From positions 20,997 to 84,996 of IMG/VR virus record IMGVR_UViG_3300033072_000249: DNA of 64,000 bases; one strand, 5' to 3'. The notes under the pieces are model-generated. The model had not been told where the DNA came from, made no database searches, and saw nothing but the letters and a program-made list of their open reading frames with translations. Source of the DNA: a virus (taxonomy: Duplodnaviria > Caudoviricetes). The translations under genes and the position numbers were made by a program. Numbering within the stretch: position 1 is the stretch's first letter; each line of letters starts with the position of its first letter. This document shows positions 41,743-43,602 of this stretch, one piece after another.

Positions 41743-41767
41743 CAAAAGAAAACCCGGTCGCCCGGGT
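41743..41767 (-). terminator. intrinsic terminator ending the non-coding unit
   Basis: Minus strand ACCCGG-GCGA-CCGGGT followed by TTTCTTTT. Confidence 0.75.
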
Positions 41768-41894
41768 GTGTTGGTTGATGATGCAGCCCGGCCAAATCCA
41801 CCGGTAGGTATGCCGCCCGAGACCGCTCCCTTGCCTTATCGACTGGGTTGCGGAAGTGTCGCCTGGTCGATAACTCCAGGCACTACACCATCAC

Positions 41895-41996
41895 ATCAGC
41901 GGGCAGGACTCAAACCTGCATCCCCAGCCTGCCGGCCCTGCTCTATCAACCCTGCCGGGCGCACGTCCCCGTGCATTTACATTGAGCTACCGCTGG
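41895..41996 (-). ncRNA. tRNA-like element (102 nt, non-canonical core)
   Basis: CCAGCGG-TAGCTCAA...GCAGG-TTTGAGT-CCTGC-CCGCTGA; 6/7 acceptor pairs; no canonical anticodon arm. Confidence 0.5.
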
Positions 41997-42140
41997 TGTG
42001 ATGGTCCACGTCTTTCCGTGGTGTCACCCAGCCTTACGGCGCAGCTTCTCAGACTGCTGATAGCGCAGGGTTTCGCGTTGGTCGTTGATGGTGGCTCACA
42101 GTGTGGTGGCTGTGATTTACCCGGCCCTGTTGACCGACCC

Positions 42141-43027
42141 CCATCAAGGGTGTCGACTGGTTGTTGTTGGCAGGTCTCAGGCTCGTTCACAACCCGACCT
42201 GGCTGCCACAGTCGACACGCTTGATGGTTGATGCTGGTTGAGGCGGGACGCGAGGAATCGAACCTCTTTATGCCGGCCGGCACACCAGTTCTCCCCACTT
42301 CAGCAGCCATCAAGGCGGCGCCCTATCGAGGTAGCCTATGCGTTTTTGCAGCCGGACCTGATGTTGCGGTTCCCGGCACTTGGTAGGTACGCCGTCTTGA
42401 TGGTCCCCGTCTTTCCGGGGTGTCAGAGCCAGCTTGTGGCGCTGTACTCATGCCACAGATGGCGGCAGGGAGTGCGCCTACCGACTCAACCGCTCAGCTA
42501 CACCCGTTGTGAAGAGATGCTGGGCGCTGCCTTGACGACAGATCGGCCAATCGCTGAGAGGTGCCTTCGATGCACTGTACCGCCATCAAGTGTGATGACT
42601 GCCGAAGAAGTGCGGGCGGCTGTTAGGCTTACACACCCGCAAAACACATTGCAGTCACCACGCTTGATGGCCCTGCCGAGGCAGGTCACCAAGGAGAGTT
42701 TTTCAATCCTCTCTGCCCCAGAGCCTTGGGCCTTGCCGGCGTGCCTGGCATGAATCGCGGTTCGTAGGTTACTCGGCCCTGTCCGACGAATCGGCACTGT
42801 CCTTTCGCGTCTCCGCTATCTTGCACTGCACTCTTTGATACGCCAGGCCGGAATCAAACCGACTCTGCACCGCTTGAACGGCGCCGTGCTTCAACACACT
42901 CCAGGCGCGGCCGCGTGCGCTTCAAGACGCACACGGTTGATCATCAAGTGTGTTGGCTGGCTCAGACCGCCGGGCAGGTGATGGCTAACCACCCGGCATG
43001 CATAGCACCAACCAACACGCTTGATGA
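42141..43027. repeat. four (C/T)CATCAAG...CTTGATG(G/A) long hairpins of 87, 97, 88 and 87 nt
   Basis: 42141-42227, 42307-42403, 42583-42670, 42941-43027; 14-20 bp arms. Confidence 0.85.
42841..42907 (-). ncRNA. degenerate cloverleaf (pseudo-tRNA)
   Basis: Acceptor 6/7 pairs, D-like GTGT/GCAC, GCGCCG-TTCAAG-CGGTGC arm, T-loop TTTGATT; no CCA. Confidence 0.45.
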
Positions 43028-43312
43028 CCCTGCATCAGCAGGTCATCAAGTGGAGCCCCAAGATTCCCCGAAAATGCTTTAAGCGACCCGGGTTTGCGCA
43101 TGTCGACACCCCAAAAAACTGGGCAGGCGCCGACTAGCCATCTTGAGTATGTACCGCATCTCCACCTACGGCTCGGAGGGACATGGGGCTTTCGCCTTGC
43201 GTCCAGGTCGCACCCATTGTTCACCAAGAAGCCCTCGTTGAAGACGCCTTGGTGAAGGCCCGTTACGCGGGCCAGTCGGTTGCTTCAGCGCGTTCCAGAT
43301 GCAACGGTCTGG

Positions 43313-43602
43313 TCAGGAGTTGGGGCTTTCGCCCCTGGCACACGCCACACCAGAACAGGACACAGGCTGAAGTATAAACAGCTTTTTCTTATGCCAACAA
43401 TTTTTTCGCGAGCTGTTGCGTGGCAGCAACACCGAGCATCGGGTAGCCGCAGAGAGAGCCGGAACATGGCGCTTCCCGGGAAGCGATCGACCGGATACCC
43501 AGTGCCGAACTGCCTGACCAGAGACGCCAACGCGCCTGGCCAACTCATTCACCGACACCCCAACTGCTCCATCCTCACCTGGATCTGTTGTCCAACTTTC
43601 AT
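43313..43602 (-). pseudogene. frameshifted XRE/CI-type repressor
   Basis: GGAGG RBS and ATG 43602 give MKVGQQIQVRMEQLG then a stop; the other frame continues VSVNELARRVGVSGQAVRHWVSGRSLP; one extra base in the G4 run (43558-43561) joins them. Confidence 0.75.
43371..43400 (-). promoter_or_regulatory. leftward promoter driving the non-coding unit
   Basis: TTGTTG-18-TATACT on the minus strand. Confidence 0.55.

Follow-up and report, generated by a model that had tools for sequence, protein, structure and literature searches.

A gene-free stretch of about 1.5 kb lies on the minus strand of an uncultured 85-kb phage, at positions 41768-43312 of the window, the 64,000-nt stretch of this genome that was analysed. 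It is placed ahead of a recT/exonuclease/SSB operon, with a double terminator between the two, and that operon carries a conserved promoter-like site of its own. On the upstream side, an XRE-HTH ORF (43313-43732; Pfam HTH_3, 1e-5) covers the promoter candidate together with the unit's first ~50 nt, which leaves an ORF-free span of really about 1545 nt. The absence of a credible ORF, reported in the initial annotation, was borne out. The ORFs within the span were short, overlapped on both strands and had no Pfam match. Substitutions relative to the close relative L046 lacked codon periodicity (38/32/29), and the longest frame was interrupted in the same comparison by a 209-nt tRNA-bearing indel.

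The promoter proposed at 43400-43371 was too weak to be called in a strict or consensus sigma-70 scan. However, its hexamers were invariant in the alignment of the window, L046 and the more distant relative G003, despite a different upstream gene in L046. Because the 3' end of the HTH ORF covers this site, the unit might also be transcribed by read-through from the HTH gene. The terminator described earlier was found to be two in tandem rather than one, each followed by a T run, and both were conserved in L046. Promoter, terminators and the lack of ORFs supported a stand-alone minus-strand non-coding transcription unit.

The structured 5' segment of the unit contains GAAA-tetraloop hairpins at 43335-43322 and 43196-43187, a GUAA-loop hairpin at 43272-43257, a CACCAAG/CUUGGUG hairpin at 43254-43222, a variable stretch at 43149-43050 and the first spacer hairpin (Table 1). 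Identity to L046 was 92-100% across 43150-43349 and only 60-76% across 43050-43149. On reading the sequence, several GNRA-tetraloop hairpins were recognised in the array. A motif resembling the one just before the terminator (CAUCAACC) also occurs towards the 3' end of the array in L046, G001 and G002.

Table 1. Features of the array, listed in the direction of transcription
Feature	Positions	Strand	Basis or remark
Promoter-like site TTGTTG-18 nt-TATACT, preceded by an A tract	43371..43400	-	Sequence reading and relatives
Structured 5' segment	43030..43364	-	Sequence reading, L046 comparison
Spacer hairpin 1	43028..43050	-	U-A to C-G and C-G to U-G changes relative to L046
Handle module W1, class A hairpin, C.A at position 9	42941..43027	-	CM R1, 83 bits
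Non-canonical tRNA-like RNA	42839..42908	-	Relaxed ARAGORN only, 2-base 'anticodon'
37-nt block with GAGAG/CUCUC hairpin	42686..42722	-	100% identical in window, L046 and G003
Spacer hairpin 2, immediately 5' of module W2	42671..42693	-	
Handle module W2, class A, C.A at position 9	42583..42670	-	
Acceptor and D-arm half-like piece, class II tRNA type	42474..42505	-	Judged by eye only
GAAAGA-hexaloop hairpin 1, three nt 5' of module W4	42405..42420	-	Folding z = -2.3
Handle module W4, same basal helix, A.C at position 9, branched cargo	42307..42403	-	
Mini tRNA-like RNA: acceptor-like stem, one hairpin, canonical T arm (UUCGAUU loop)	42243..42298	-	
Handle module W3, class A, C.C at position 9	42141..42227	-	
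GAAAGA-hexaloop hairpin 2, immediately 5' of module WB	42006..42021	-	Folding z = -2.6
Handle module WB, CCAUCACA/UGUGAUGG handle, C.A at position 9, tRNA-like cloverleaf cargo	41888..42004	-	
3' segment: two hairpins and CAUCAACC motif just before the terminator	41768..41887	-	
Two tandem intrinsic terminators, stems 41767-41752 and 41739-41721, T run after each	41711..41767	-	

Handle modules and small hairpins

The four similar long hairpins of the initial annotation were confirmed and extended to five modules (W1, W2, W4, W3 and WB; 78-121 nt) sharing one basal helix. This common closing helix comprises 8-9 bp (CCAUCAAG/CUUGAUGG, or the CCAUCACA variant). At position 9 stands a pair that is not Watson-Crick, and a second stem with 10-12 bp comes next; the whole handle measures ~21 bp, with 19-21 paired positions and a central mismatch. 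Handle modules in general measured 78-186 nt and combined the basal helix with the non-Watson-Crick position 9. The WB handle was kept in G001, G002, G003, L046 and L049, with differing cargo. In G003, the W1 orthologue (L035 2903-2990) kept its inner hairpin through two double compensatory changes.

Covariation among homologues was assessed on 13 copies of class A, drawn from about 10 phage lineages. In the class A handle stem, 98.4% of the cells were paired and six pairs changed on both sides. The covariation score was reached by none of 500 shuffles, and slid controls paired at 20-56%. Pair 19-94 was C-G in seven copies and U-G in six. The handle was also conserved in sequence, as 15 of its 19 base pairs were nearly invariant across lineages and its 5' strand read RRCCAUCAAGYGUG in every class A copy. 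Position 9 was never Watson-Crick in class A, being C.A, C.C, U.G or U.U. Reading this mismatch as the C1.A72 pair of an initiator tRNA was dropped because the C.C, U.G and U.U variants occur. A class A hairpin of G001 that had been taken as inverted proved to be co-oriented, with U.G at position 9, the terminators and the 5' spacer hairpin serving as marks.

Of 20 modules, 16 folded more stably as the sense than as the antisense strand (66 against 40 G-U pairs); the exceptions included W4 and the class B module of G003, for which the antisense strand gave the better fold. Selection thus acts on the folded form of the handle stem, and G-U usage favours minus-strand RNA. Against an RNA reading, however, covariation with G-T pairs would equally suit single-stranded DNA hairpins. 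The handle hairpin is an RNA family that is supported by covariation and has not been described. A second ncRNA operon of this genome, which carries a real tRNA-Asn, has a hairpin closed by a CCACCAAG/CUUGGUGG helix; this helix equals the handle apart from a compensatory change, from U-A to C-G.

The two pairs of repeated short hairpins between the modules were likewise found, one being the spacer pair (43050-43028 and 42693-42671) and the other the GAAAGA pair, whose third stem pair is C-G in one copy and A-U in the other. A 12-bp G-U-rich closing stem, also claimed before, could not be identified in the array. The GAAAGA loop occurred on five different stems in the window, G001, G003 and L049, and as a GAGAGA form in G002. 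This conservation of a purine-rich hexaloop on covarying stems would fit a cis-acting leader of the recT operon, in which boxB-like GAAAGA loops or put-like elements modify RNA polymerase for read-through of the double terminator, as at lambda pL or HK022 putL. The gene order also resembles the early left region of lambda, with a repressor-type HTH gene, the unit, terminators and recombination genes in succession and the replication genes divergent. Nonetheless, the unit of 1.5 kb is far above any nut or put site, the downstream operon has a promoter-like site of its own, arrays in G001, G002 and L053 stand in unrelated genomic contexts, and tRNAs occur within arrays. Such a leader seemed highly improbable to us.

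tRNA-like pieces and cassette exchange among relatives

Three to four tRNA-like pieces had been noted in the array. They are present at 42908-42839, at 42298-42243 and inside WB, and a 5'-half-like piece lies at 42505-42474, so that the description of repeated structured modules with tRNA-like parts was supported. In the first three, T-arm-like hairpins with a UUCRAnY-type loop (~42860, ~42260 and ~41915) adjoin an acceptor stem, each standing beside a 6-7 bp stem formed with upstream sequence. In the RNA at 42839-42908, the acceptor stem is 7 bp long and includes a U.U pair, the D arm is short and lacks GG, the 'anticodon' stem has 6 bp and a loop of 6 nt (alternatively 5 bp and 8 nt), and the loop of the T arm reads UUUGAUU. 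The G003 orthologue of this RNA was reported by ARAGORN as 'tRNA-???' with a 4-base anticodon, and the anticodon stem covaried between the window and G003 (G-C to U-A, G-U to G-C and C-G to U-G). The mini tRNA-like RNA has no D or anticodon arm and partially matched the tRNA-Sec model (19.6 bits, E ~1, 35 model positions missing). Two of its three differences from L046 preserve pairs (U.G to U-A and A-U to G.U). The WB cargo combines an expanded D loop, a 4-bp stem that has a tetraloop but no anticodon at the anticodon position, and a T arm whose loop reads UUUGAGU.

We accepted as a tRNA only a sequence above the Rfam gathering score of 29 bits or with a default ARAGORN call, together with a 7-nt anticodon loop. 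Default ARAGORN returned no gene in the window, and RF00005 gave no match at E<=10 in 41600-43500. The folds of the tRNA-like pieces were no more stable than those of shuffles. Since these pieces fail all tRNA models and fold like shuffles, some of them may be relics.

Relatives of the array contain real tRNAs. L046, which is 90-97% identical, has a true tRNA-Gln (61.5 bits) plus an extra handle module inserted exactly at a handle repeat, the point of insertion being the W2 3' strand (42591-42583). G003 has a tRNA-Gln (60.3 bits) and a tRNA-Arg (51.5 bits) inside the same array. These tRNAs pass the tests that the window pieces fail. The tRNA-Gln begins immediately after the handle 3' strand in the relatives, and the window phage is without this cassette. 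In the comparison with L046, handle 3' strands mark the breakpoints of the 209-nt cassette indel and likewise of a replacement of 247 nt, with the W3 3' end forming the left breakpoint of the replaced segment. Module order varied among phages, and distant relatives retained only one or two modules. These comparisons show gain, loss and exchange of cassettes, located exactly at handle strands.

The real tRNAs at the same places in the relatives, and the loss of the tRNA-Gln cassette from the window, could also point to a decaying tRNA gene cluster, in which the tRNA-like pieces are pseudogenes and the hairpins are leftover inter-tRNA spacers with no function of their own. The failure of the three tRNA-like pieces with default ARAGORN and the Rfam tRNA model, the lone half-like piece, for which no matching 3' half was found, and the non-significant folding z-scores are consistent with this reading. 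However, the tRNA-free arrays of G001, G002 and L053 retained handle modules, promoter and terminator. The handle stems covary, and the odd tRNA-like RNA at 42839-42908 keeps its stem in G003 through compensatory changes. The array was also better conserved than the neighbouring protein genes: array blocks were 76-81% identical to G003, with one 37-mer at 100%, whereas the adjacent protein was only 48% identical. Decay of this kind is therefore unlikely as the explanation of the array.

Distribution and comparison with known systems

The initial annotation could not match the unit to a named family, and none was matched in the Rfam check. A cmscan with all 4227 families gave no gathering-level match in the 64 kb, and at E<=10 the segment 41600-43500 gave only a partial tRNA-Sec, mir-564 and a TMV pseudoknot, all at chance level. 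A blastn search with the whole unit and one hairpin found no real match in 50,697 isolate phage records, and a pattern scan covering 185,579 bacterial and archaeal species, each represented by a single genome, returned one phage-like contig and nothing else. Covariance-model copies were confined to arrays. In the first IMG/VR pattern scan, 25 of the 33 matches fell by coincidence within coding sequence belonging to an unrelated family of RecT genes, and in later scans L047, L048/L052 and L054 were palindromes or matched by chance. A further locus, L051, holds a repeat array of an odd kind. The CCATCAAG word occurred 21 times genome-wide against 2.4 expected. These copies were rejected as extra handle sites, the excess being attributed to codon usage because all ten plus-strand copies in plus-strand genes outside the array share one codon phase (NCC-ATC-AAG). 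A literature search found no description of the handle element.

GOLLD and ROOL RNAs are associated with phage tRNA loci. The array resembles them in its setting, a phage or prophage locus beside tRNAs, and as a GNRA-rich non-coding segment of more than 1 kb without ORFs, which would suggest one large ornate RNA that folds, and perhaps multimerises, as a whole. The kinship suggested earlier was not upheld. No such family or covariance model matched at E<=10, and content was modular and shuffled, with no single conserved fold. Close relatives differ by insertion, deletion and replacement of whole modules, which is evidence against one large fold, and in distant relatives only one or two modules remain. 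We regard a GOLLD/ROOL-type RNA as extremely improbable.

The breakpoints at handle strands, the differing module order and the invariance of the handle around variable cargo might also be explained at the DNA level. The handles would then be inverted-repeat recombination sites or MITE-like ends of attC-like cassettes, and the hairpins would matter only as single-stranded DNA or recombinase sites. Elements of 78-121 nt with a fixed helix interruption recall integron attC sites. These too are hairpins with imperfect pairing, 60-140 nt long, in which the base is conserved, the helix has a defect at a fixed place and the top varies, and they are located at cassette boundaries where insertions and deletions occur. 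In contrast to integrons, the cassettes here are RNA genes rather than ORFs, and no integrase of the tyrosine recombinase type (PF00589) was found in G000 or G003. By eye, the handle strands were unlike the attC core consensus RYYYAAC/GTTRRRY. Unlike MITE or REP repeats, the handles gave no dispersed copies in the scan of 185,579 species genomes beyond the one phage-like contig, and covariance-model matches lay only within arrays. G-U-type pairs are concentrated on the transcribed strand, a bias that favours RNA, and GNRA loops and conserved apical loops indicate RNA as well. A purely DNA-level role is thus very unlikely. Racr RNA anti-CRISPRs mimic a CRISPR repeat of the host's system in sequence and structure; the length of the handle hairpins is three times that of a repeat.

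RNase III stems include the helices flanking rRNA operons and the R sites of the T7 early region. Like these, the handles are repeated helices of ~20 bp that have an internal non-Watson-Crick interruption and bracket transcript units. However, 15 nearly invariant pairs of 19 exceed what RNase III needs, and cleavage of the handle is only predicted. Profile searches of these phages for TROVE, RNase III, dsRBD, ProQ, RtcB and the CCA-adding enzyme were all negative, and the lack of a phage gene for a processing enzyme or RNA-binding partner counts against handles as processing or recognition stems. HD_4 adjoins the array only in G001 and L053.

Bacterial Y RNAs offer another comparison. They are 80-130 nt long, their ends form a long stem with the protein site, the internal loop is large, there is a tRNA-like domain, and phage-encoded examples exist (PMC4201824). 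The size and stem of the handle modules agree with this architecture, and so do the pairing of the ends into a conserved, distorted stem, the variable or tRNA-mimicking distal module (as in YrlA/Yrn1) and the several paralogues side by side. Conservation of the handle in sequence, beyond structure, would also be expected if the distorted handle tethered one protein, either a host Ro60/Rsr-type ring or an unrecognised phage protein, while the cargoes recruited different partners, as in YrlA. However, no TROVE/Ro60 gene (PF05731) was found in the 85-kb phage genome with positive controls, and the GNCGAAN0-1G motif that Y RNAs have near the 5' end (PMC4201824) is absent from the handle. No Y-RNA-type Rfam family matched even at E<=10. 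The tRNA-like cargo occurs only in the class B copy of the window, WB, where, unlike in Y RNAs, the handle stacks on the acceptor-like stem. A tether of this type is quite unlikely.

Interpretation of the array

Phage tRNA clusters, such as the T4 tRNA region with its co-transcribed stable species 1 and 2 RNAs, provide the closest framework. They share with the array a non-coding operon organisation with its own promoter and terminator, and tRNAs and structured RNAs on one precursor. Unlike them, the array in the window is without any canonical tRNA. To our knowledge, a sequence-conserved closing helix of non-tRNA modules has not been described for such clusters. Because the orthologous arrays of L046 and G003 hold bona fide tRNAs (60-61 bits), a co-transcribed and processed precursor is the natural reading. 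The polycistronic processed precursor of the initial annotation gains from this, while its interpretation as a whole was partly supported. We favour, with a probability only slightly above one half (about 0.55), a polycistronic operon of non-coding RNAs that belongs to the same type as phage tRNA clusters and is made of handle-bracketed cassettes, which would serve in processing and recognition, action in trans and recombination.

The function that we infer for this operon would be as follows. Transcription of the minus strand would start at its own weak but conserved promoter and stop at the double terminator before the recT/exonuclease/SSB operon. The transcript would be a string of cassettes, in each of which the 5' and 3' ends of the module pair into the sequence-conserved handle. 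This handle would bracket a variable cargo, which may be a simple hairpin, a branched RNA or a tRNA-like cloverleaf, with small spacer hairpins and tRNA or tRNA-like units sitting between modules. At the RNA level, the handles may act as recognition and processing stems. Their 3' end would abut the RNase P site of the next tRNA, and a 21-bp helix with a central mismatch could be a substrate of the kind used by RNase III-type enzymes or by a sequence-specific RNA-binding protein. The handle stems might also delimit and stabilise individual small RNAs. Once released, the anticodon-less tRNA mimics and hairpin RNAs may have targets in trans, namely host proteins of tRNA handling or defence. Repetition of the handle sequence could in addition supply the homology for recombination of cassettes.

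A more specialised arrangement can be considered, although it is rather unlikely. In such a dedicated 'RNA cassette' system, an unrecognised phage or host protein would bind the invariant 21-bp helix and its obligatory mismatch, excise or load the modules, and present them, as tRNA mimics and hairpin aptamers, in the role of exchangeable decoys against tRNA-directed or RNA-sensing defences. The handles would allow phages to trade cassettes, and the array would then be the counterpart, for RNA genes, of an integron array.

The common view of phage tRNA clusters is that they provide a codon supply or anti-defence spare parts. The array described here appears to be a tRNA-type operon that has lost every decoding tRNA, but in which selection has kept anticodon-less tRNA mimics and hairpin RNAs with one invariant helix. 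It offers a compact case of phage small RNAs that are probably recognised via a common handle, and it would add a new covariation-supported RNA family to the databases. The handle-strand repeats suggest a visible mechanism by which RNA cassettes may be shuffled between phages. If a handle-binding protein exists, the array would represent a new RNP of phage-host conflict.

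Anatomy and coding status of the array

The similar long hairpins reported in the initial annotation proved to be five modules within a non-coding array (window 41768-43312, minus strand), their ends pairing into one common basal helix, the handle. This helix was CCAUCAAG/CUUGAUGG in four modules and CCAUCACA/UGUGAUGG in the fifth. From the base, each module comprised the basal helix, a non-Watson-Crick pair at position 9 and 10-12 bp of further stem. A small spacer hairpin or a GAAAGA-hexaloop hairpin lay 5' of every module; the loop of the latter was constant, while its stem varied between copies. 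Three tRNA-like units lay between modules. The Rfam tRNA model accepted none of them, nor did ARAGORN at default settings. A 37-nt block (window 42686-42722, minus strand) was identical in three phages, with a hairpin loop that included GGAUUGAAA, the sequence in which type I-C CRISPR repeats end. Its distance from the hairpin before it is wrong for a repeat.

Features of the array and its surroundings (window positions unless stated)
Feature	Position	Strand	Remark
XRE-type HTH ORF	43313-43732	-	upstream of array
tRNA-like unit 1	42908-42839	-	'anticodon' loop of 6 or 8 nt
tRNA-like unit 2	42298-42243	-	solely acceptor stem, hairpin and T arm
tRNA-like unit 3			cloverleaf cargo of last module (WB); tetraloop at anticodon position
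Intrinsic terminators, consecutive	41767-41752; 41739-41721	-	
349-aa protein, no assigned function	40604-41653	-	downstream of array
RecT	39699-40601	-	downstream of array
YqaJ exonuclease	39047-39706	-	downstream of array
SSB	37559-38146	-	downstream of array
Replication initiator and DnaC-like helicase loader		+	divergent from HTH gene
Second self-contained ncRNA operon	G000:C1 (full genome of this phage), about 5880-6590	+	14.4 kb before window start

The claim that the region holds no credible reading frame was borne out. Its frames were short and overlapping without a Pfam match, and the 99 substitutions relative to the related contig L046 were spread evenly over codon phases (38/32/29). 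The same comparison revealed a 209-nt indel that broke the longest frame. The proposed promoter (TTGTTG-18-TATACT, 43400-43371) did not pass a strict sigma-70 scan, but both hexamers were invariant across the window, L046 and G003, a phage of more remote kinship. The XRE-HTH ORF extends about 90 nt beyond its HTH domain, across this site. The tail sequence was common to the window and L046, the upstream gene of L046 being unrelated, and is probably an accidental extension. The predicted terminator was confirmed, and a second one follows it.

The 85-kb IMG/VR virus record, of which the window covers bases 20997-84996, was rated complete by CheckV. The closest isolate relatives of the 349-aa protein were Xanthomonas and Xylella phage proteins. 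The initiator frame (43280-44365, plus strand) overlapped the XRE-HTH ORF, with its PHROG match confined to residues 246-344. Its start codon probably lies downstream of 43732; the divergent promoter region would then be very short. An HD_4 (RelA/SpoT-type hydrolase) gene lay directly upstream of the array in G001 (L038 1957-2727, minus strand) and L053 (937-1617, plus strand). In this phage it lay away from the array (window about 57016-57291, plus strand), and G002 and G003 had none.

Structure and distribution of the handle hairpin

Covariation was tested on an alignment of 13 copies. Two-sided changes occurred at six pairs of the 19-pair stem, and the observed covariation was reached by none of 500 shuffles. 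Standard pairs filled 98.4% of alignment cells, and sliding the partner strand as a control cut pairing to 20-56%. Eleven pairs never varied, so the handle is conserved in sequence as well as in structure; one pair was C-G in seven copies and U-G in six. Position 9 of the class A hairpins was C.A in most copies and otherwise C.C, U.G or U.U, and Watson-Crick in none. Over 20 modules, the transcribed strand used 66 G-U pairs and its complement 40, and in 16 of them the transcribed strand gave the more stable fold. This stability, the G-U excess and the GNRA tetraloops favour the minus-strand RNA as the folded form; hairpins in single-stranded DNA are less likely.

Pattern scans found true hairpin relatives in G001, G002 and G003 (complete phage genomes, 82-93 kb), in the viral or metagenomic fragments L026, L027, L049, L050 and L053, and in L046 (CAZPVS010000009.1, 38 kb). 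Across the replication genes, array and 349-aa gene, the last shared 89-97% identity with this phage. It was deposited in a 'Candidatus Saccharibacteria' MAG whose handle hairpins were restricted to that contig, most likely a wrongly binned phage contig. No further relatives appeared among bacteria and archaea (one genome per species, 185,579 species), and the 50,697 records of isolate phages yielded none. With a covariance model of the 13 copies, additional ones were found exclusively within these arrays. In metagenomic L051 (PVBE010929339.1, 780-1010), four to five tandem handle-like 25-mers were followed by an equal number inverted. This arrangement could reflect misassembly or the amplification of a handle. 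CCATCAAG was tenfold over-represented in the window. All ten plus-strand copies inside plus-strand genes (4083-31457) shared the phase NCC-ATC-AAG, a codon-usage effect rather than extra handle sites.

Cassette exchange and possible role

L046 had an insert that the window lacks: a true tRNA-Gln (61.5 bits), then a spacer hairpin, then one more handle module, of 121 nt. The insert was bounded precisely by two copies of a 9-nt repeat from a handle strand, of which the window has a single copy (42591-42583). At a second difference, unrelated cargo replaced window 42141-41894, both breakpoints being handle 3' strands. In G003, a tRNA-Gln immediately followed a handle and a tRNA-Arg closed the array. 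The odd tRNA-like unit 1 had a G003 orthologue, its anticodon-position stem kept by compensatory changes and its loop sequence wholly different. Array blocks were 76-81% identical between the window and G003 (one 37-mer 100%), while the adjacent protein was merely 48% identical. The arrays of G001, G002 and L053 were shorter and had no tRNA, each with its own promoter, terminator and one class A module; G001 and G002 also had one of class B. The G002 and G001 arrays ended in a small CCUCCC-loop hairpin and terminator (L040 1090-1151 and L038 1167-1227, both minus strand). With the Burkholderia anti-hemB sRNA model, whose gathering score is 49.5, the hairpin reached 42.6 bits in G002 and 24.1 bits in G001. 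Absent from the window array, it looks like an anti-Shine-Dalgarno-type sRNA.

The second ncRNA operon holds the only canonical tRNA of this phage (Asn, 6450-6525) and a hairpin of about 120 nt closed by CCACCAAG/CUUGGUGG, the handle with a compensatory change. Wherever a tRNA was present, the handle 3' end coincided with the expected RNase P cleavage site of the tRNA behind it.

The best-supported reading of the array is a polycistronic ncRNA unit of tRNA-operon type, built from handle-flanked cassettes. What role the handle plays is a matter of inference, guided by the RNase P coincidence, its stem length and mismatch, and its sequence invariance. In length and central mismatch it resembles RNase III-type processing stems. 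Its invariant sequence would call for a sequence-specific reader; no such protein was recognisable in the phage genomes. GOLLD/ROOL, attC and MITE readings, weighed alongside Racr, failed the membership tests that were run. Y RNAs, which combine a conserved distorted stem with variable and at times tRNA-like cargo (PMC4201824), are the nearest functional analogy to the handle modules, but the modules fall short of membership on the Ro60 gene, absent from the phage genome, and on the binding motif, absent from the handle. An anti-defence role is speculation. The initial view of a non-coding, structured, polycistronic array holds in outline: the element is real and under selection, undescribed in the libraries searched, and clear in its architecture.
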